Source of the DNA: a virus | Lineage: Duplodnaviria > Heunggongvirae > Uroviricota > Caudoviricetes | Length of the DNA: 64,000 bases | Direction: 5' to 3' (one strand) | IMG/VR virus record: IMGVR_UViG_3300031133_000383 | Location: 314,635 to 378,634 of that record | Shown here: positions 7,080 to 61,386 of the stretch, one piece after another | How positions within the stretch are numbered: position 1 is the first letter of the stretch | Layout: the number at the start of each line of letters is the position of its first letter | Notes under the pieces: generated by a model | What the model saw: only the letters and a program-made list of their open reading frames with translations | Database searches by the model: none | Told to the model about the DNA's origin: nothing | Made by a program: the position numbers and the translations under genes

Positions 7080-8659
7080 CAATTAGAGACTTGGAAGCCT
7101 CGTCCTTCAGGGCGGGGAGGAATAGTCTCTCATGTCTTCTTTCAATTGGCAACTTATTGAATGTTGACTTTTATTTTTAGTCTCCTATAATATTTTCTAT
7201 TATTTTTTCAACTTTTTTATATGTTGTCTCAGGAGAAACATTTGAAGCGTAACACTAAAAAGAAAAATCCATTGATTGAGACTAGAGTCTGCCAAATGTG
7301 GCTTAATTCTCTTTCTTCTTTCGATCATGATTTTCTTTTTAAACTTTCTACTCATTCTTCTCTTATGTACAATTTTGCACTTTATCAAATTCGGCAAAAC
7401 TATTTTAAATCAAATTTATTGTCTTTTAAAGATAATTATCATTTATGTAAAAACAATGAACACTTTTCTATCTTATTGAACGATTGCTCACAGCAAGTCG
7501 TTCAACTTGCTCATCGTGATTTTAATTCATTTCTTGGATTGTTAAAAGCCAAAAAGAAAGGCACTTATACTAAAGAAGTGAAAATAGCTCGATATAAGAA
7601 AAAAAATAATGAAACTGTTTTGTCAAATATCGTTATTCAAGGTCGTAGTATACGAATAGATCATAAACAATCATCAAAACTAGATAATGTTAATATATTT
7701 AAATTCAATGCTTCCAAGGCTTTTAAATTACTTTATCCCAATACAAGTCATTCTTTTGAATTTCAAGTGCCAAAACATATTCAAACCATTAATGAAATAA
7801 GAATTATTCCACATGGAAAAGCTCCTGTTCAATTTAAACTCGAAGTTGTTTACAAAACAACTATCGAGACAAAAAAAGATGATAATGGTCAATATCTATC
7901 AATAGATCCGGGTTTAAATAATTTAGTAGGTTGTTTTAATTCTAAAAACGGACAGTCGTTTATTATTGATGGTAAATATATTAAATCTATCAATCACTTC
8001 TATAATAAAAAATCGTCTAAGTTACAAAGTAAAATCGATTTACGTAAAAATGAAAAATTAGAAACAAATGATCTAATTAAAAAGAAAAATAAATTAACAC
8101 ACAAAAGAAACAATAAAATTAATGATTATTTCCATCGTTCTACAAAGTTTATTGTTGATTATTGTGTAAAACACAATATCAACAAGATAATTGTTGGTGA
8201 AAATAAAGAACAGAAACAAGATATTAATATCGGTAAAATCAATAATCAAAATTTTGTATTTATTCCTCATGCTAAATTCAAAGATGTACTTGAATATAAG
8301 GCAAAAGCAAAAGGTATTGAAGTAGTAAGATGCGAAGAGTCTTACACTTCAAAAACAAGTTTCATTGACCTAGAACCAATGAAACACCAAGAGAGCTATC
8401 TTGGTAGAAGGACCAAAAGAGGAATGTTCAAAAGCAAAGAAGGAATATTGATAAATTCGGATATAAATGGAGCAGCAAATATACTAAGAAAGTATTTAGA
8501 AAGTAGTGGCAAATTTAAAGAATGGAGAGATCTTTATTTTAAAGAAGCTAGTAAGGGTATCGTAAACTACCCAAAGAAGCAAACCTTGATCAGTTTACTG
8601 ATAAAGTCAGGCTTCAACAAAACTAAAAAAGCTCCGTCCTTCAGGGCGGGGTAGTTTAC
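7080..8659 (+). mobile_element. Non-autonomous IS200/IS605-family (IS1341-like, TnpB-only) element
   Basis: Subterminal palindrome cgtccttcagggcgggg at both 7101-7117 and 8635-8651; right end ...gtagtttac; no tnpA; removing 7080-8659 rejoins a reading frame (cct ttg aaa t|ac aac aag). Confidence 0.85.
7221..8654 (+). CDS. tnpB: RNA-guided endonuclease TnpB
   Basis: MYNFALY wedge; RuvC-I SIDPGLNN; RuvC-II IIVGE; EESYTSK; RuvC-III NSDINGAANI. Confidence 0.93.
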   Translation: MLSQEKHLKRNTKKKNPLIETRVCQMWLNSLSSFDHDFLFKLSTHSSLMYNFALYQIRQNYFKSNLLSFKDNYHLCKNNEHFSILLNDCSQQVVQLAHRDFNSFLGLLKAKKKGTYTKEVKIARYKKKNNETVLSNIVIQGRSIRIDHKQSSKLDNVNIFKFNASKAFKLLYPNTSHSFEFQVPKHIQTINEIRIIPHGKAPVQFKLEVVYKTTIETKKDDNGQYLSIDPGLNNLVGCFNSKNGQSFIIDGKYIKSINHFYNKKSSKLQSKIDLRKNEKLETNDLIKKKNKLTHKRNNKINDYFHRSTKFIVDYCVKHNINKIIVGENKEQKQDINIGKINNQNFVFIPHAKFKDVLEYKAKAKGIEVVRCEESYTSKTSFIDLEPMKHQESYLGRRTKRGMFKSKEGILINSDINGAANILRKYLESSGKFKEWRDLYFKEASKGIVNYPKKQTLISLLIKSGFNKTKKAPSFRAG

Positions 8660-23787: not shown

Positions 23788-24312
23788 ATGTTCAAGAAAT
23801 CCAGCAAGCTGTTTAGTTTTGATTTACCTACAATTGTAATTATTTTATTCATCTTGTCTTTTAAATCTTTTGCATATAATCCATCTTATGTACCATCTGG
23901 TTCTATGTTACCCACTATTCAAGACAAGTCTTTTATCTTGGTGGATGTTCATACCTATGGCCTTAAAATCCCATTTACCAAAATAACGTTGATTCCCATC
24001 TCCAATCCTCAACGTGGTGACATTGCTGTTTTTAGAATGCCATTGAAAGAAAATACCAATTACATCAAACGTATTGTTGCTGTTCCCGGTGATAAAATTT
24101 ACTTCAATCAACATGAATATTTTATCAATGAAACGCCTAAAGATTTATATAAATATAACTACACTATTATTCCAGAAGACAAGTATTTTGCTATTGGTGA
24201 TAATATTGAACATTCATATGATAGCCGATTTTGGGGATTTGTACCTAAAGAAAACCTTGTAGGTAAATATGTAACTACATTGGTTAAATTAAAATCAGTA
24301 TTACCTGACTAG
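23788..24312 (+). CDS. lepB: Signal peptidase I (S26)
   Basis: N-terminal TM; VPSGSMLPT (Ser), RGDIAVF, YIKRIVAVPGD (Lys), GDN..SYDSRFWG. Confidence 0.92.
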   Translation: MFKKSSKLFSFDLPTIVIILFILSFKSFAYNPSYVPSGSMLPTIQDKSFILVDVHTYGLKIPFTKITLIPISNPQRGDIAVFRMPLKENTNYIKRIVAVPGDKIYFNQHEYFINETPKDLYKYNYTIIPEDKYFAIGDNIEHSYDSRFWGFVPKENLVGKYVTTLVKLKSVLPD

Positions 24313-24360
24313 TTAAAACATCATATAAACAATATCCAGAACGATCTGGATATTTATTGT

Positions 24361-24888
24361 TTATTTATTTATTATATATGGCTCAATTTTTTTGATGACT
24401 GTTAGGTCTATGTCAATATATGAAATCATGCCGGTATATTCCACACCCAAATTGTTTAAAGCCTTGATTACATTTTCCTTATGAAACATTTTATAAACGT
24501 CTTTATATTCAGAAGGTGTTGTTGTAAAAAAACCTACTAACAATATAAAATACATTAGTGTACTGGCAAACATTATGGGCACTATTACTTTATAATTGAT
24601 ATCTAAACAAATTATAAAAAAGTTGACAGCTAATATTATCAATAATGTACAAGTAATATTTGAAAAAGTCTTTTTTTCTTCATTTTTAAATTTCATAAAT
24701 TTTTCAAACTTCTCGTTGTTATTAAGTATGATAGAATCTATGGCTTTTTCAACATCTTGCCTCGGTTGATTTTTTTGCATCTCTTTACCCTCATTTTTAT
24801 AATATATTAACGGATTATTTTGAATTATCAATTGCTCTTTTTTGATTTTTTTGTTAAAATAATGAAATTCTTTCAAAGATGGAGTCAT
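24361..24888 (-). CDS. 2-TM membrane protein
   Basis: Two hydrophobic segments; true start probably MQKNQ (SD gaggg). Confidence 0.7.
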   Translation of the reverse strand: MTPSLKEFHYFNKKIKKEQLIIQNNPLIYYKNEGKEMQKNQPRQDVEKAIDSIILNNNEKFEKFMKFKNEEKKTFSNITCTLLIILAVNFFIICLDINYKVIVPIMFASTLMYFILLVGFFTTTPSEYKDVYKMFHKENVIKALNNLGVEYTGMISYIDIDLTVIKKIEPYIINK

Positions 24889-24889
24889 A

Positions 24890-25786
24890 ATGAAAGCATC
24901 CCTGTTTAATAAAAACTTTCTTAAGGATCTAAAATTGCCCGTTGCTGTGGATAAAGATCCTTATTTTTCTCATTACATGAACCTTGTTGATCCTTATTTT
25001 TCGTCACTCGACAAATATCAGACTTTTGTTCAGTGCTTTGAAAATCATGGTCGTGAATTATTTTTTGACAATAATCGTCGCCTAGTTAACGCGACTCTTG
25101 ATTATTTAAAGGATAAACCGGCTTTTGAAGTTTTTAATAATATCGACATCAAGCAATTTAAGAAGGATATTCAAATCTCTGGCCAAGAATTGTATAAATC
25201 CCATAATCAGAACAAACATTTTATCAGTATTGATTTGGTTAAAGCAAATTTTCAGTCACTGCTTTTTGTGGTTCCTGATTTGTTTGATGGTCATACCAAT
25301 TATGATGATTTTGTTAAAAGTCGTGGTTTTAATGATTTTATGGTTATTAGCAAACAGATTCGACAAATCTTATTTGGTAATATGAACCCACAACGTCAAC
25401 AAAAGATCCAATCATTTATGATGAATCAAATTGCTGATATTCTGGTTCTAAACGGTATTTCTGTTTCAGATATTTATAGTTTATCGTCTGACGAATTGGT
25501 TTTTGAAAATGTTGACGATAATCATACTGTTTTTGATGTGGTTAGTGTATTAATGCCTCTTGGTTTTGATGTAAGAGTAGAAGCCTTTAAGTTGGTTCGG
25601 CCTTTTGAAAAGCCTTTCTATGTAAAAGAGTTGCAGGATGGCACTAAATCGTTTAAAATGGTGCCTACTTCGGTAATGGCGGAATTTATTAAACGTCTTG
25701 AAAACCGTCCGGTTGAAGACATTGACCTCTATTTTTATGATGAAACAGGTCGTCTTTCTAAACACGTTGAACCTTTTATTGATTAG
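24890..25786 (+). CDS. Hypothetical protein with polymerase-palm-like acidic motifs
   Basis: FISIDLVKANFQSL...SKQIRQILFG...SLSSDELVF; SD ggag. Confidence 0.6.
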   Translation: MKASLFNKNFLKDLKLPVAVDKDPYFSHYMNLVDPYFSSLDKYQTFVQCFENHGRELFFDNNRRLVNATLDYLKDKPAFEVFNNIDIKQFKKDIQISGQELYKSHNQNKHFISIDLVKANFQSLLFVVPDLFDGHTNYDDFVKSRGFNDFMVISKQIRQILFGNMNPQRQQKIQSFMMNQIADILVLNGISVSDIYSLSSDELVFENVDDNHTVFDVVSVLMPLGFDVRVEAFKLVRPFEKPFYVKELQDGTKSFKMVPTSVMAEFIKRLENRPVEDIDLYFYDETGRLSKHVEPFID

Positions 25787-25796
25787 GAGATCTACC

Positions 25797-26495
25797 ATGA
25801 TTGGTCGTAAAGCTTATATTCCTTATGGAAATCAGGTTATTGCTATTGAAATCTATGCTGAAACACCCGGAGATTTTACGGCTCGCACAGGCATTGATTT
25901 ATCTAATGAGTGTGTAGCTCAAATTTCTACACTTGAAAATATCTTGGATCAAGTGGTTGAAAGACCAGTTGGACCTTCTGTTGAACGTTTTCATACTGCA
26001 GAAGGCATTGGAAATATTGTAAATCGTAAACACTTGATGCTTTCCTCAGTTGACCTTGATGATATGATAAAGTATTCATCGGTGTCTACTAAGCTTTTTC
26101 AAGCTTCCGATATTGACGGTTTGGAACCAAATGCTATTGATTATCTTTCTGGCACTTCCTTTTTTCATGACAAAACTAAAAAAAGTTTTCAAGGTTTTAT
26201 TGAAATACCTAGTAAACAAAACACAATTCTTTCAGATTTTAACCAGTTGACTACTTGTAGCGTTAAGATAATTAATAATAAATATTTTGTTCCAGTTCAT
26301 CTATTCAAAAACTCTGAATTCCTCTTTGATGATAAACGTGACAAAAAGGAAAATGGCGAATGGATTGTCCTCTATTATGGCATTGATAATACTTCATATG
26401 GGTTACGATTCTCTACAGAAGATATGGCTTTGGAGTATATTGAATGTGGATTTAAAGCAGGTTATAATCCCGATATTCTTTATTATAATTCTTGA
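25797..26495 (+). CDS. Hypothetical protein
   Basis: SD aggag before ATG 25797; terminator at 26513-26535. Confidence 0.75.
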   Translation: MIGRKAYIPYGNQVIAIEIYAETPGDFTARTGIDLSNECVAQISTLENILDQVVERPVGPSVERFHTAEGIGNIVNRKHLMLSSVDLDDMIKYSSVSTKLFQASDIDGLEPNAIDYLSGTSFFHDKTKKSFQGFIEIPSKQNTILSDFNQLTTCSVKIINNKYFVPVHLFKNSEFLFDDKRDKKENGEWIVLYYGIDNTSYGLRFSTEDMALEYIECGFKAGYNPDILYYNS

Positions 26496-40723: not shown

Positions 40724-40805
40724 TCACCATTATTAAACTTTTTCTTGACGAATGATTGATTTTTTGTTATAATCAGACAAATATAAATGAATGAGGACTA
40801 TATTT

Positions 40806-41885
40806 ATGTCAACCTTTAATGCTATCGTGCTTCCAGTCATTGTTGAGGCCCACCCAAACGCTGATGCAATTGAACTTGCTCGTGTGGGGGACTATTTTTC
40901 CATTATTCAAAAAGGATATCTAAAAACAGGTGATCTGGCTGTTTACATTCCAGAAGGTGCTCTTGTTCCTGAATTTATTCAAGAAGAAGTTGGCTGTTTG
41001 GGTAAATTAGCAGGCTCCAAGAAAAATCGTTTGAAACCTAGTATGCTGCGTGGAGTCCTCAGTCAAGGTCTTTGCTATAAGGCTCGTGATGGCTGGGTTG
41101 AAGGTCAGGACATGGCTCAGGAACTGGGTATTGAAAAATACGAACCTCCTATTCCTGTCCAACTCGCAGGTGAAATCTTGAATGTTGGTCATGAAAACGT
41201 TTTTACCTTTGATATTGAAAACGTAAAACGTTTTCCACATATTCTTCAAGAAGGTGAGTTGGTATCCATGACCGAAAAACTTCATGGTACTTTTACAGTA
41301 GTGGCCAGCTTGTATGGTAAAGAACCTAATTCAGATATGGTCAATGGCCGCTCTTTTGCGAGCAGTAAGGGAAATTTTAATAAAGGCTTGGCCATTCGTG
41401 ACAACGAGCGTAATGCTAAAAACACCTATGTTCGCGTGGCTAATGAGTTCGGTTTGTATACTGCATCTGCTGTACTATCAGATCGTTTTCAGGACAATGT
41501 TTATATTACTGGCGAAACTTTCGGCGATGTGCAAGATTTACGCTATGGCTTGGAAAATGGCAAAATCGATTTTCGTGTGTTCAATATTTTTGTAGGTAAC
41601 CGTGCAAAAGGTGTTATGCCACTCAATGATGCTGAACTTGAAGCAGCCTTGACTGAGTTTAACCTTAAGCGTGTTCCTGTTCTCTATAAGGGGCCTTACA
41701 GTAAAGAAGTGATGTTGCAACACACTGATGGCAAGGAAACCTATTCTGGACAAAACCTTCACATGCGAGAAGGTTTGATTGTCGAACCTCTTGTTCAGAG
41801 ACGTGTTCCAGAAATTGGACGGGTTGTCTTGAAAAGTGTTTCAGCTATTTACCTTGCTCGAAAAGGTGGGACAGAGTTCAACTAA
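40806..41885 (+). CDS. ATP-dependent RNA ligase, DRB0094 family
   Basis: N-terminal HPNADAIE...LRGVLSQGL module; motif I TEKLHGT; GETFG, FRVFNI, REGLIV, LKSVS. Confidence 0.9.
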   Translation: MSTFNAIVLPVIVEAHPNADAIELARVGDYFSIIQKGYLKTGDLAVYIPEGALVPEFIQEEVGCLGKLAGSKKNRLKPSMLRGVLSQGLCYKARDGWVEGQDMAQELGIEKYEPPIPVQLAGEILNVGHENVFTFDIENVKRFPHILQEGELVSMTEKLHGTFTVVASLYGKEPNSDMVNGRSFASSKGNFNKGLAIRDNERNAKNTYVRVANEFGLYTASAVLSDRFQDNVYITGETFGDVQDLRYGLENGKIDFRVFNIFVGNRAKGVMPLNDAELEAALTEFNLKRVPVLYKGPYSKEVMLQHTDGKETYSGQNLHMREGLIVEPLVQRRVPEIGRVVLKSVSAIYLARKGGTEFN

Positions 41886-57483: not shown

Positions 57484-57567
57484 GCATTTTTCGGCCTTGA
57501 TATTGTTGTCAGTAGACTTTTTTTGATGTATAATAGTTGCATTAAAATTATTTTAAGGTCTTTTGAC

Positions 57568-58908
57568 ATGTCCTCCACAGTTGCATCTTTCAGTATTGTT
57601 GGCCGTAATATGACCGCTATGGCTCGAAACATGGTGTTGGATGGTGATTGGAGAAAAAGCACTAAATTCTTGATCGATGAATTTGAAGGTATGACGCATG
57701 GTTATGCTCACATGATTTTGCGTGGCACTCATGTGCTTGACGGTATCAATAATGATATTGAAATGATTGAAGAGCGTGACGATAACTATATTGAAACAAT
57801 GAACGAAATCTATTGTCACAACAGTTTTTACGAATTAGGACAGCTTTATGAATTTCAATCTTTGGTTACAAATGAAACTGTTCATGAAGACATTCGTCGT
57901 CGTCAACTTAACCATGATATTCCAGCCTATGAAGAATATGTTCGTAAATACCTATGCCCCCAACAGGCGTTAGTTTTCAATGTAACCATGGATAGTAAAA
58001 ACTTTTATACCATCATAGCAACTAAAAAAGATAACAATGATCTGCCATTATGGTTTGGAGAGGATGATTTTAGCCGTTCTGCTAAAGCATTCTTTACAAA
58101 ACATCTAAAACCTGCTCCAGTACCTGCAGTTGATAAAGGTATATTTATACAATCTGTTGATGAGCCTACCGAAAAACCTGACTGGTATAAATCCATTCGT
58201 ACTGCTCGGGCATTGCAAACAGCTTCAAATCATGGTTTTGATTCAATTGAAGGCTTTTCAAACAGCCTTCGAAAAAATGTCTTGCAAACAATTGTAGACC
58301 GTGGAGTTCAATGGAAAACGCTTCATATTAATCATGATGGAATAAATGAAACCATCCAGTATCCTTATGAATTAGCGATGGCGTATGTTTTTTCTCGGAC
58401 GGATATCCGACAATTTGCTCCGAAATGGACACCAGTTTGTCCTAGTAATATCAAACAAGATAATGATTCAAGACTGCATTCCGATATTTGGATTGCATTG
58501 GGGTTCGATTTCGATGGTCAAGAATACGACTATAGCACTAAAGAAAACTTAATTCTGTCGGCGATTGTTGATGAACTTCATAACGAAGTTTTCCCAGCCG
58601 GTGAATTTATCACTTTGAACTCGGCGGGGCTGAAAACATTTACAGGTAAAGTAGTTACTCCACAGTCAAAAAAAATTACAAAACATGATATTCTGGTTAT
58701 TCCACATGCTGGATCTGAATTTGAGATTTTTGCTCGGCAAGCGGGTCTTGTCATTTCAGAAGTAGGTGGTAAACTGGCTCACTTAGTCATTGTAGGTCGA
58801 GAAATGGGATTGCCTTTGGTTCGAGTTGATAATGCATGCGAGTTATTCAAGGAAGACGTTGTTATTTCTCTTAACTTTGATGAATGTACTTTAAAAGTAA
58901 AACGATAA
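57568..58908 (+). CDS. Protein with a C-terminal PEP-utilising enzyme mobile (phosphohistidine swivel) domain
   Basis: DILVIP...VISEVGGKLAHLVIVGREMGLP matches the GG..sH.aIvaRE.g.P motif; no ATP-grasp or TIM-barrel domain evident. Confidence 0.78.
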   Translation: MSSTVASFSIVGRNMTAMARNMVLDGDWRKSTKFLIDEFEGMTHGYAHMILRGTHVLDGINNDIEMIEERDDNYIETMNEIYCHNSFYELGQLYEFQSLVTNETVHEDIRRRQLNHDIPAYEEYVRKYLCPQQALVFNVTMDSKNFYTIIATKKDNNDLPLWFGEDDFSRSAKAFFTKHLKPAPVPAVDKGIFIQSVDEPTEKPDWYKSIRTARALQTASNHGFDSIEGFSNSLRKNVLQTIVDRGVQWKTLHINHDGINETIQYPYELAMAYVFSRTDIRQFAPKWTPVCPSNIKQDNDSRLHSDIWIALGFDFDGQEYDYSTKENLILSAIVDELHNEVFPAGEFITLNSAGLKTFTGKVVTPQSKKITKHDILVIPHAGSEFEIFARQAGLVISEVGGKLAHLVIVGREMGLPLVRVDNACELFKEDVVISLNFDECTLKVKR

Positions 58909-60222: not shown

Positions 60223-60505
60223 TATTTTTTACTTTAAAGCCATCTTCGGGTGGCTTTTTTGATCAAGTTAAATTGATTTCCATTATTGTTAAAAACTCGT
60301 TTAAATCAAAAATATTTCGACAGTCATTTGTATTTAAAAAAGCTACAACATCTTCTTTTCCTTATTTTTCTAAATTTACCTTAATATTTTCTCTATCTTA
60401 CTCTCTTTAGCTTTTTTATCAATAGCTTTACAATATGACATTTTTTATTTTTCTTTAAATAGTTGTTGACTGTAAACCATCATTTTGATAATATAGTCAC
60501 ATCAA

Positions 60506-60589
60506 GCCCGAGTGGTGGAATGGTAGACGCGGTGGATTCAAAATCCTCTGTCGAAAGACGTGCCGGTTCGAGTCCGGCTTCGGGCACCA
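60506..60589 (+). tRNA. tRNA-Leu(CAA)
   Basis: Class II cloverleaf, gtgga-TT CAA AA-tcctc, A-CCA. Confidence 0.93.
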
Positions 60590-60599
60590 AATTTATATT

Positions 60600-60753
60600 T
60601 TAACTGTTGAAAAGAGATGCTGTGCTAATACCAGTGTGGCAGTAGAGGTGGTGACCTATTACTTTATTGCATGATGTTAGCAGGGTTATGAAAGTCACTA
60701 TAATAGTTAAGGGTTGGTAGTAATGCATTTTCAATCTCTCTATGCATTATGAC
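60600..60753 (+). ncRNA. Double-pseudoknot structured RNA, copy 1
   Basis: P1 ttaactgtt/aatagttaa; P2 tgctaata/tgttagca; P3 gcagtagag/ctttattgc; PK ggtgac/gtcact; PK agaga/tctct in the loop of taatgcat/atgcatta. Confidence 0.75.
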
Positions 60754-60770
60754 TTTTATTGTTGGTAAGG

Positions 60771-60944
60771 TTTCAATTGTCGAAAAGAGATGCAGTGGTA
60801 ACACCCAAGCGGTGATAGAATTGGTGACCTATTATTTTATCACACGATGTTGCCATTAGTCAGGAAAGTCACTATAACAATTGAGACAGCAGTAGATGTG
60901 TTGTGTGCTTTAAATCTCTTTGTACACTGCATGCTGGACTACTG
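60771..60944 (+). ncRNA. Double-pseudoknot structured RNA, copy 2
   Basis: P1 tttcaattgt/acaattgaga; P2 tggtaaca/tgttgcca; P3 gtgatagaa/ttttatcac; same two pseudoknots; stems covary with copy 1. Confidence 0.75.
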
Positions 60945-60977
60945 ATTTGTAACGCAGGTTTTTATCCCTGCATTCTA

Positions 60978-61064
60978 TTTTGTTTAGGCTTGTAGCTCAG
61001 ATGGTAGAGCGGAGGGCAGAAACCCTCGCGTCGGAGATTCGATTTCTTCCTCGCCTAGACAAAA
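60978..61064 (+). ncRNA. tRNA-like RNA / pseudo-tRNA
   Basis: Canonical D and T arms; anticodon arm gaggg-CAGAAA-ccctc (6-nt loop); acceptor stem has a 2x2 mismatch, extends to ttttgtttaggc/gcctagacaaaa, no CCA. Confidence 0.7.
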
Positions 61065-61220
61065 TTTTTTATTTTTAATCAATCAAAGATGACAGCTATT
61101 TGAACTCTGGATTGGTGTAATGATTTTTTTCAACAACCTTGAGCTTGATGTTTTCAAAAAAGAAATCATGGTTAAAAATCTTGACTTCTTTAGCATCTGA
61201 TGCTAATATAACCACACAAA

Positions 61221-61312: not shown

Positions 61313-61386
61313 TTCTCGTTAGTTTAACGGTAGAACAGCGGCCTCTAAAACCGTGTATGCGGGTTCGAATCCCGCACGAGGAACCA
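61313..61386 (+). tRNA. Amber suppressor tRNA (CUA)
   Basis: Acceptor ttctcgt/acgagga, D arm gttt/gaac, anticodon arm gcggc-CT CTA AA-accgt, T arm gcggg-TTCGAAT-cccgc, A-CCA. Confidence 0.88.

Follow-up and report, generated by a model that had tools for sequence, protein, structure and literature searches.

Directly after tRNA-Leu(CAA), within one of the tRNA operons of a jumbo phage related to XacN1 and with tRNA genes on both flanks, two tandem paralogous copies of a structured RNA domain of about 160 nt are encoded, and their fold of four helices (P1, P2, P3 and P4) is real, as shown by the compensatory changes between the copies. Stable structured RNAs in phage tRNA operons are a kind already known; what is new here is the uncatalogued fold. 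About an even chance is given to the reading of the element as a lineage-specific structured RNA of the tRNA-Leu(CAA) operon, composed of two paralogous domains and a tRNA mimic and acting in trans, with the lineage so far limited to one XacN1-related jumbo phage.

The window, i.e. the whole 64,000-nt stretch of DNA that was analysed, corresponds to bases 314635-378634 of a 437,043-bp IMG/VR virus record with a CheckV completeness of 98% and a GC content of 31%. Among cultured phages, the Xanthomonas jumbo phages XacN1 and Xoo-sp13 stand nearest to it (about 45% identity for a 778-aa protein). A near-identical stretch was found in the runs of at least 18 studies, labelled as phyllosphere, leaf, seed, plant, food and dairy. 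The whole phage genome contains 27 matches to tRNA models and no match to the Pfam models Terminase_6N and Gp23. Its longest ORF is 778 aa with the standard code, which is unusual at this phage size, and readthrough of TAG or TGA yields no long ORFs. The direct neighbours of the two copies are tRNAs, and the nearest ORFs were assigned no function by Pfam or PHROG.

An earlier sequence-only reading of this DNA had placed a tandem RNA pair directly after tRNA-Leu(CAA), and the pair was confirmed at the positions listed in Table 1, with 10 nt from the end of the tRNA to the start of copy 1, a column identity of 83% between the copies and a period of 173 nt. The helices proposed in that reading were written onto the alignment of the two copies and the pairs were then counted. 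P1, P2, P3 and P4 comprise 34 nested base pairs, which together with 13 candidate pseudoknot pairs make 47, and standard pairs were found in 98.9% of the cells (47 pairs in two copies). Nine pairs had changed on both sides (two in P1, one in P2, three in P3 and three in P4) and seven more on one side. With the 3' partner moved by 1-3 columns as a slid control, 0-2 double changes and 30-51% pairing were obtained, and the observed values of pairing and double changes were reached by 1 of 500 column shuffles. That the stems change in pairs, as had been claimed, is borne out by these counts, which come from one pairwise comparison of two members in one genome, for which R-scape-type statistics are impossible. 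P1 to P4 also recur within the minimum-free-energy fold of each copy taken separately, and an extra outer stem around P4 is present in copy 2 only. Several G-U pairs would become C-A mismatches if the opposite strand were read, and the RNA strand is therefore +. In one DNA contig from another sample, a substitution (A60776T, depth 3, possibly a sequencing error) would turn an A-U pair in P1 of copy 2 into U-U.

Table 1. Features of the tRNA-Leu(CAA) unit (positions in the window)
Feature	Position	Strand	Basis
Sigma-70-type promoter of the unit: TTGACT, 17-nt spacer, TAATAT, TG before the second hexamer	60466-60494	+	Predicted; consensus match only
tRNA-Leu(CAA), CCA encoded	60506-60589	+	ARAGORN, Rfam (47.8 bits)
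Copy 1, structured RNA	60598-60756	+	Alignment, pair counts, MFE fold; two-copy covariance model, 183 bits
Copy 1 P1	60600-60607 / 60703-60710	+	
Copy 1 P2	60623-60630 / 60675-60682	+	
Copy 1 P3	60639-60647 / 60662-60670	+	
Copy 1 P4 (3' hairpin)	60720-60728 / 60742-60750	+	
Copy 1 candidate PK1	60649-60655 / 60694-60700	+	
Copy 1 candidate PK2	60613-60618 / 60734-60739	+	
Copy 2, structured RNA	60771-60934	+	Alignment, pair counts, MFE fold; two-copy covariance model, 195.7 bits
Copy 2 P1	60773-60780 / 60877-60884	+	
Copy 2 P2	60796-60803 / 60848-60855	+	
Copy 2 P3	60812-60820 / 60835-60843	+	
Copy 2 P4	60900-60908 / 60922-60930	+	
Copy 2 candidate PK1	60822-60828 / 60868-60874	+	
Copy 2 candidate PK2	60786-60791 / 60914-60919	+	
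Small GC hairpin GCAGG/CCUGC, then AUUCUAUUUU	60954-60971	+	Terminator-like; bridged by RNA-library contigs
tRNA mimic, closing helix and U-run	60977-61077	+	Rfam tRNA model, 40.4 bits; fold z-score -2.9
RNA-library contigs (two studies, one each)	60612-61035 (424 nt), 60614-61036 (423 nt)		0 differences, no loose ends

The single-stranded blocks that had been described as kept were recovered in full, all four of them being present and unchanged in both copies: GAAAAGAGAUGC at 60609 (copy 1) and 60782 (copy 2), GGUGACCUAUUA at 60650 and 60823, GAAAGUCACUAUAA at 60690 and 60864, and AAUCUCU at 60733 and 60913, respectively. Two long-range pairings, PK1 (UGGUGAC/GUCACUA, 7 bp) and PK2 (AGAGAU/AUCUCU, 6 bp), can form by complementarity in either copy. 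The pseudoknot blocks do not differ between the copies at any of their 26 bases, and PK1 and PK2 are therefore without covariation support; of the description as a covarying double-pseudoknot RNA, the covarying nested stems hold, whereas the pseudoknots are complementary and none of them covaries. When the loops were shuffled with matched composition, pairings of at least 7 bp (the length of PK1) arose in 12.7% and those of 6 bp (the length of PK2) in 52%, and the complementarity of PK1 and PK2 is statistically not unusual. Both are plausible candidates and appear sterically feasible from geometric considerations, according to which PK1, with 7 bp, could be spanned by a 1-nt loop, and P3 (9 bp) could lie folded back against P2 (8 bp).

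Conservation between the copies is uneven, with an identity of 26/26 in the pseudoknot blocks, 62% in the nested stems and 5/15 (33%) in the linker between P1 and P4. Changes were found in 16 of the 34 nested pairs; at the same rate, the probability of no change in the 13 pseudoknot pairs would be approximately 0.53^13 = 3e-4. The blocks are thus frozen while the stems drift, which argues that they are constrained as sequence, beyond mere pairing. Possible causes are an active site, a binding surface, or a pairing that also fits the other copy. A three-codon mini-ORF (AUG, two codons and UAA), located directly after an AAGAG run at 60618-60629 (AUGCUGUGCUAA) and 60791-60802 (AUGCAGUGGUAA), was rejected for its lack of a usable Shine-Dalgarno spacing, and its presence in both copies probably reflects no more than a chance combination of bases conserved in the junction and the stem.

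The promoter predicted for the unit recurs in identical form at 61181-61209, where it heads the next tRNA unit, and no ORF was found between copy 2 and this next promoter. The cloverleaf of the tRNA mimic (60986-61057) has a 6-nt 'anticodon' loop CAGAAA, two acceptor-stem mismatches and no CCA, and it is not called by ARAGORN. A 13-bp helix (60977-60989 / 61053-61065) closes the mimic and is followed directly by the U-run at 61066-61077 (UUUUUUAUUUUU), so that the mimic is a probable tRNA-shaped intrinsic terminator of the unit. A 23-nt part of its D-arm recurs about 13.5 kb downstream, outside the window.

Logan contigs from four runs were mapped to the stretch. The two RNA-library contigs bridge copy 1, copy 2, the GC hairpin and most of the tRNA mimic, and between the two studies their starts differ by 2 nt and their ends by 1 nt; beyond 61036 the sequence is continued by a DNA contig. 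No repeat of at least 16 nt was found in the genome at either end of the RNA contigs, and no joints or circular junctions were reported in the contigs. Neither RNA run covers 60380-60504 or 61055-61120, and the uncovered part is not taken as evidence. Logan contigs give no strand, level, depth or true ends and RNA libraries can contain DNA; the RNA contigs are read as a weak hint that a defined RNA, about 0.42 kb long or longer, exists. Their starts lie 4-6 nt past the 5' strand of P1 in copy 1 (60600-60607), at the onset of the invariant junction block, and this strand is missing from the assembled RNA although P1 covaries. An internal promoter candidate at 60677-60704 (TTAGCA, 16-nt spacer, TATAAT) was rejected on the grounds that the second hexamer reads TATAAC in copy 2 and that the RNA contigs start 100 nt upstream.

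The claim that the compact RNA is unrecognised agrees with the search of Rfam 15, in which all 4227 families were compared by cmscan at E<=10 with the 701-nt region and with copy 1 and copy 2 alone, and nothing relevant was found; the single-copy searches returned only two C/D-box snoRNA matches of 11-11.5 bits, near chance. At the gathering score, only tRNAs were matched over the whole window. No match at E<=10 was given by the models of hammerhead, twister, twister-sister, pistol, hatchet, hairpin, HDV and glmS, or by those of the riboswitch aptamers, and no ORF follows the copies within the unit. The GOLLD and ROOL models were matched neither at the gathering score over the whole window nor at E<=10 locally, no tmRNA was found by ARAGORN or by the Rfam tmRNA models, and the models of RNase P RNA and T-box gave no match in the Rfam searches. 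Catalogued ribozymes, riboswitches, GOLLD, ROOL, tmRNA, RNase P RNA and T-box are thus excluded within the reach of covariance models. The TROVE-domain protein Ro60 (PF05731), the partner of bacterial Y RNA (YrlA), is absent from the 437-kb genome, and the control genomes were positive.

Several likenesses were considered and rejected. ToxI-like antitoxin repeats of type III systems are about 36-45 nt long and stand in tandem beside the gene of an endoribonuclease toxin; the units here are 173 nt apart, their neighbours are tRNAs and the nearest ORFs are without assigned function. An HDV/theta fold was rejected on topology, each of the four covarying helices being nested with respect to the others, and because no HDV-type start lies 5 nt or less from the end of the tRNA. 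For the latter, a loose home-made HDV descriptor was used, which gave no candidate starting at 60584-60596; it is too permissive in AU-rich sequence (941 raw hits), so that only this absence at the tRNA end was used, and its other matches contradict the covarying stems. A match to CR-I of RNase P (GGAAAGUC) was rejected because it is too short, its strand order is reversed and the RNase P models are unmatched. A T-box-like pairing between UGGUG and the CACCA that ends the tRNA was dropped as speculation, the T-box models being unmatched as well.

Homologues were searched with a covariance model built from the two copies and with sequence patterns. A search of IMG/VR with such a two-copy model had been put forward in the sequence-only reading; the model was run on the phage's own 437-kb genome, on XacN1 and Xoo-sp13 and on five IMG/VR relatives, and only the phage's own two copies matched. 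In the own genome, two chance-level scores were obtained besides, and no third copy was found across it by a fuzzy search with the four blocks. XacN1 gave no match, and a match of 18 bits in Xoo-sp13 was rejected, as it lies antisense inside a CDS and is without the conserved blocks. The five IMG/VR relatives (47-56% protein identity), one of which is a complete 435-kb genome, gave no match either, nor did the tRNA clusters of the complete relative with the filters of the model switched off. These relatives were found only with a three-sequence protein alignment; the 400-aa neighbour gene, or the 778-aa protein alone, returned none from IMG/VR.

The pattern searches covered IMG/VR, JGI metagenomes and GTDB genomes. 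The pattern GGTGACCTATTA..GAAAGTCAC was matched 0 times in IMG/VR, by the identical phage and one chance match in the JGI metagenomes and by one chance match in GTDB. The patterns GAAAAGAGATGC..GGTGAC and GAAAGTCACTATAA..AATCTCT gave 21 matches (in IMG/VR), none of which was confirmed by the covariance model, and 4 matches, likewise without a confirmed one, respectively. Neither 50,697 phage records (blastn, 'distant' mode) nor 5,426 E. coli genomes, queried with 60598-61064 by blastn, gave a match. Within the reach of the searches run, the family consists of two members in one phage species.

Among known systems, RNAC and RNAD of phage T4 have their genes within the tRNA cluster and are freed from the precursor transcripts of tRNAs. 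The element here is likewise a structured RNA of a large phage at tRNA genes; unlike RNAC and RNAD, it combines two paralogous domains with a tRNA mimic in a single RNA, and the fold proposed for it is more elaborate. No sequence similarity to them was found by blastn in 'distant' mode among the 50,697 phage records, in which T4 is assumed to be included. To our knowledge, no role has been established for T4 RNAC and RNAD, GOLLD or ROOL. RNAC and RNAD (species 1 and 2) have been described as small stable RNAs of unknown function from a large virulent phage (PMC9697503), and GOLLD and ROOL as pseudoknotted phage or prophage RNAs of unknown function, often located by tRNA islands (bioRxiv 10.1101/2024.12.08.627333). 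With the latter, the element shares that it is phage-encoded and adjoins tRNA genes, which is a common setting and not membership; GOLLD and ROOL are about 600-800 nt long and widespread, in contrast to a domain of about 160 nt in one phage species. The element belongs to none of T4 RNAC/RNAD, GOLLD and ROOL.

In the twister ribozyme, a helix stack with internal loops is folded by pairing of the terminal loop back to an internal loop, and the cut lies just 3' of the 5' strand of P1. The RNA contigs here start at a place comparable to the twister cut. In contrast to twister, the second long-range pairing (a candidate) here involves an additional 3' hairpin in place of the terminal loop already used. 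The domain also has about three times the size of twister, lacks its conserved nucleotides and is matched by no twister model. The theta ribozymes, which are minimal HDV-like ribozymes, are reported mostly beside tRNA-Met, suppressor tRNA and tRNA-Leu (PMC10879173). The likeness to them is that of a structured RNA beside a phage tRNA, with both described as double-pseudoknot folds. The covarying helices here are nested; in theta ribozymes, P1 and P2 cross each other, the RNA is much smaller and the cleavage site lies no more than 5 nt from the tRNA.

For the trans-acting structured RNA, the following course is envisaged. Host RNA polymerase would start at the sigma-70-type promoter predicted at 60466-60494 and transcribe, in this order, tRNA-Leu(CAA), copy 1, copy 2, the small hairpin and the tRNA-shaped terminator, presumably stopping near 61066-61077. 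The tRNA would be cut off by host tRNA-processing nucleases, leaving an RNA of about 0.43-0.49 kb with both domains and the tRNA mimic. In each domain, P1, P2 and P3 form one helix stack with two internal loops between them, with P4 as a separate 3' hairpin. The stack would probably be locked twice: in PK1, the P3 loop and the 3' side of the P1/P2 junction would pair, and in PK2, the 5' side of this junction and the P4 loop. The frozen loop and junction blocks may then serve as the working surface, with which the RNA would most likely hold or titrate, in trans, a protein or RNA partner tied to tRNA metabolism or host takeover. Action in trans is taken as most likely solely through the exclusion of alternatives, both a cis regulator and an efficient self-cleaver being unlikely. 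The RNA contigs run across both copies into the tRNA mimic, which argues against two efficiently self-cleaving units, and neither an ORF nor an expression platform follows the copies in the unit, which argues against a cis-acting riboswitch.

Of the other readings, the one that sees in each copy a self-cleaving ribozyme of a new class is unlikely but keeps a real chance. The cut would fall between the 5' strand of P1 and the GAAAAGAGAUGC junction, so that the trailer of tRNA-Leu would be trimmed and the operon transcript divided. The contig starts of two libraries at 60612 and 60614 suit a cleavage model better than a simple release of the intact RNA, and the absence of the covarying P1 5' strand from the contigs resembles the behaviour of short helices that dissociate after cleavage. 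The compact domain with two candidate long-range pairings around a frozen junction follows the general design of small self-cleavers, and theta/HDV-like ribozymes are known beside phage tRNAs including tRNA-Leu (PMC10879173). Against this, both contigs pass the equivalent site of copy 2 (about 60783-60787), so that copy 2 at least is not fully cut. The models of known self-cleavers are unmatched at E<=10, the length of about 160 nt is above that of most small self-cleavers, and RtcB is absent from the phage genome. Contig ends are, moreover, not equal to mapped RNA ends, no compared DNA run crosses 60612, and a host RNase cutting in the AU-rich trailer after the tRNA could yield the same contig end. 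Because the contigs cross the copy 2 site and a host RNase could account for their start, self-cleavage was ranked second. A little less probable still is its specific form, in which the ribozyme would cut the P1/junction boundary of copy 1 near 60609-60612 and free the trailer RNA of tRNA-Leu, copy 2 being a slower or regulated paralogue.

The identity of 26/26 bases in the pairing blocks while the intramolecular stems drifted would also be expected if the blocks must fit either copy, as in a self-assembling scaffold in which the invariant blocks pair between copies or molecules to give a dimer or higher oligomer, comparable to ROOL and GOLLD. The retention of tandem copies on one RNA agrees with such an assembly, and RNA-only assemblies are described from phage tRNA islands and from RNAs shorter than 200 nt (bioRxiv 10.1101/2024.12.08.627333; 10.64898/2026.07.01.735769). 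The same invariance is, however, equally explained by sequence-specific tertiary contacts or by one shared ligand or protein, and pairing within a copy appears sterically feasible, so that the scaffold is judged distinctly unlikely. Slightly lower again is the probability given to elements acting in cis, i.e. tandem aptamers, a put-like antiterminator at the 60954-60971 hairpin, or spacers that guide or protect nuclease cuts in a multi-tRNA transcript. The tandem copies do stand upstream of this terminator-like hairpin and the RNA contigs read through it, but downstream in the unit there is only a tRNA mimic that is not chargeable, the next tRNAs have their own promoter and no riboswitch family matches; four helices and frozen junctions in two copies far exceed the needs of a spacer, and the element is missing from most other tRNA gaps of its own genome and of the relatives. 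Finally, with only two copies in one genome, and with AU-rich sequence and G-U pairs making helices easy to find, the stems could be put down to chance in a recent tandem duplication of junk spacer without function. This is highly improbable in view of the nine double compensatory changes and the 98.9% pairing, where the slid controls reach only 0-2 and 30-51%, the sharp drop in conservation from 100% in the pseudoknot blocks to 33% in the linker, and the near-identity of the stretch in at least 18 studies from leaf, seed and dairy habitats.

Large phages repeatedly put elaborate RNAs inside tRNA operons, and the element is a small, tractable example of them. For the domain of about 160 nt, the natural compensatory changes give a clear map of the helices and the frozen junctions mark the likely working surface; its small size makes it accessible to cleavage assays, structure probing, pull-downs and cryo-EM, while the RNA of two domains and a tRNA mimic is seen in leaf and seed RNA libraries. 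If it were self-cleaving, it would represent a class of ribozyme not described before. Since it is known from one phage species only, the generality of the element and the statistical weight of its structure are limited.

Other features of the phage genome were observed as follows. A tRNA with a CUA anticodon (amber suppressor; labelled Pyl by ARAGORN) lies at 61313-61386 between tRNA-Leu(UAA) and tRNA-Met, and a CUA tRNA is also present in the complete 435-kb IMG/VR relative. Readthrough of TAG barely lengthens the ORFs of the window or the genome, and the phage therefore does not look globally TAG-recoded. Within the window, a 477-aa ORF at 7221-8654 (+) has OrfB_IS605 and Cas12f1-like TNB domains and is a TnpB-type transposon nuclease, a 364-aa ORF at 40791-41885 (+) has an Rnl2-type RNA_ligase domain (PF09414, E = 5e-17), and a 461-aa protein encoded at 57523-58908 (+) has a C-terminal PEP-utilising mobile domain and is distantly related (21-30% identity) to proteins of Caulobacter and Vibrio phages. 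Outside the window, genes for a full-length Hsp70/DnaK, for an NAD-dependent DNA ligase, for an M3 peptidase and for an MFS-acyltransferase fusion were found at C1:182807-184708, 203147-205018, 102124-104040 and 24221-26173, respectively.
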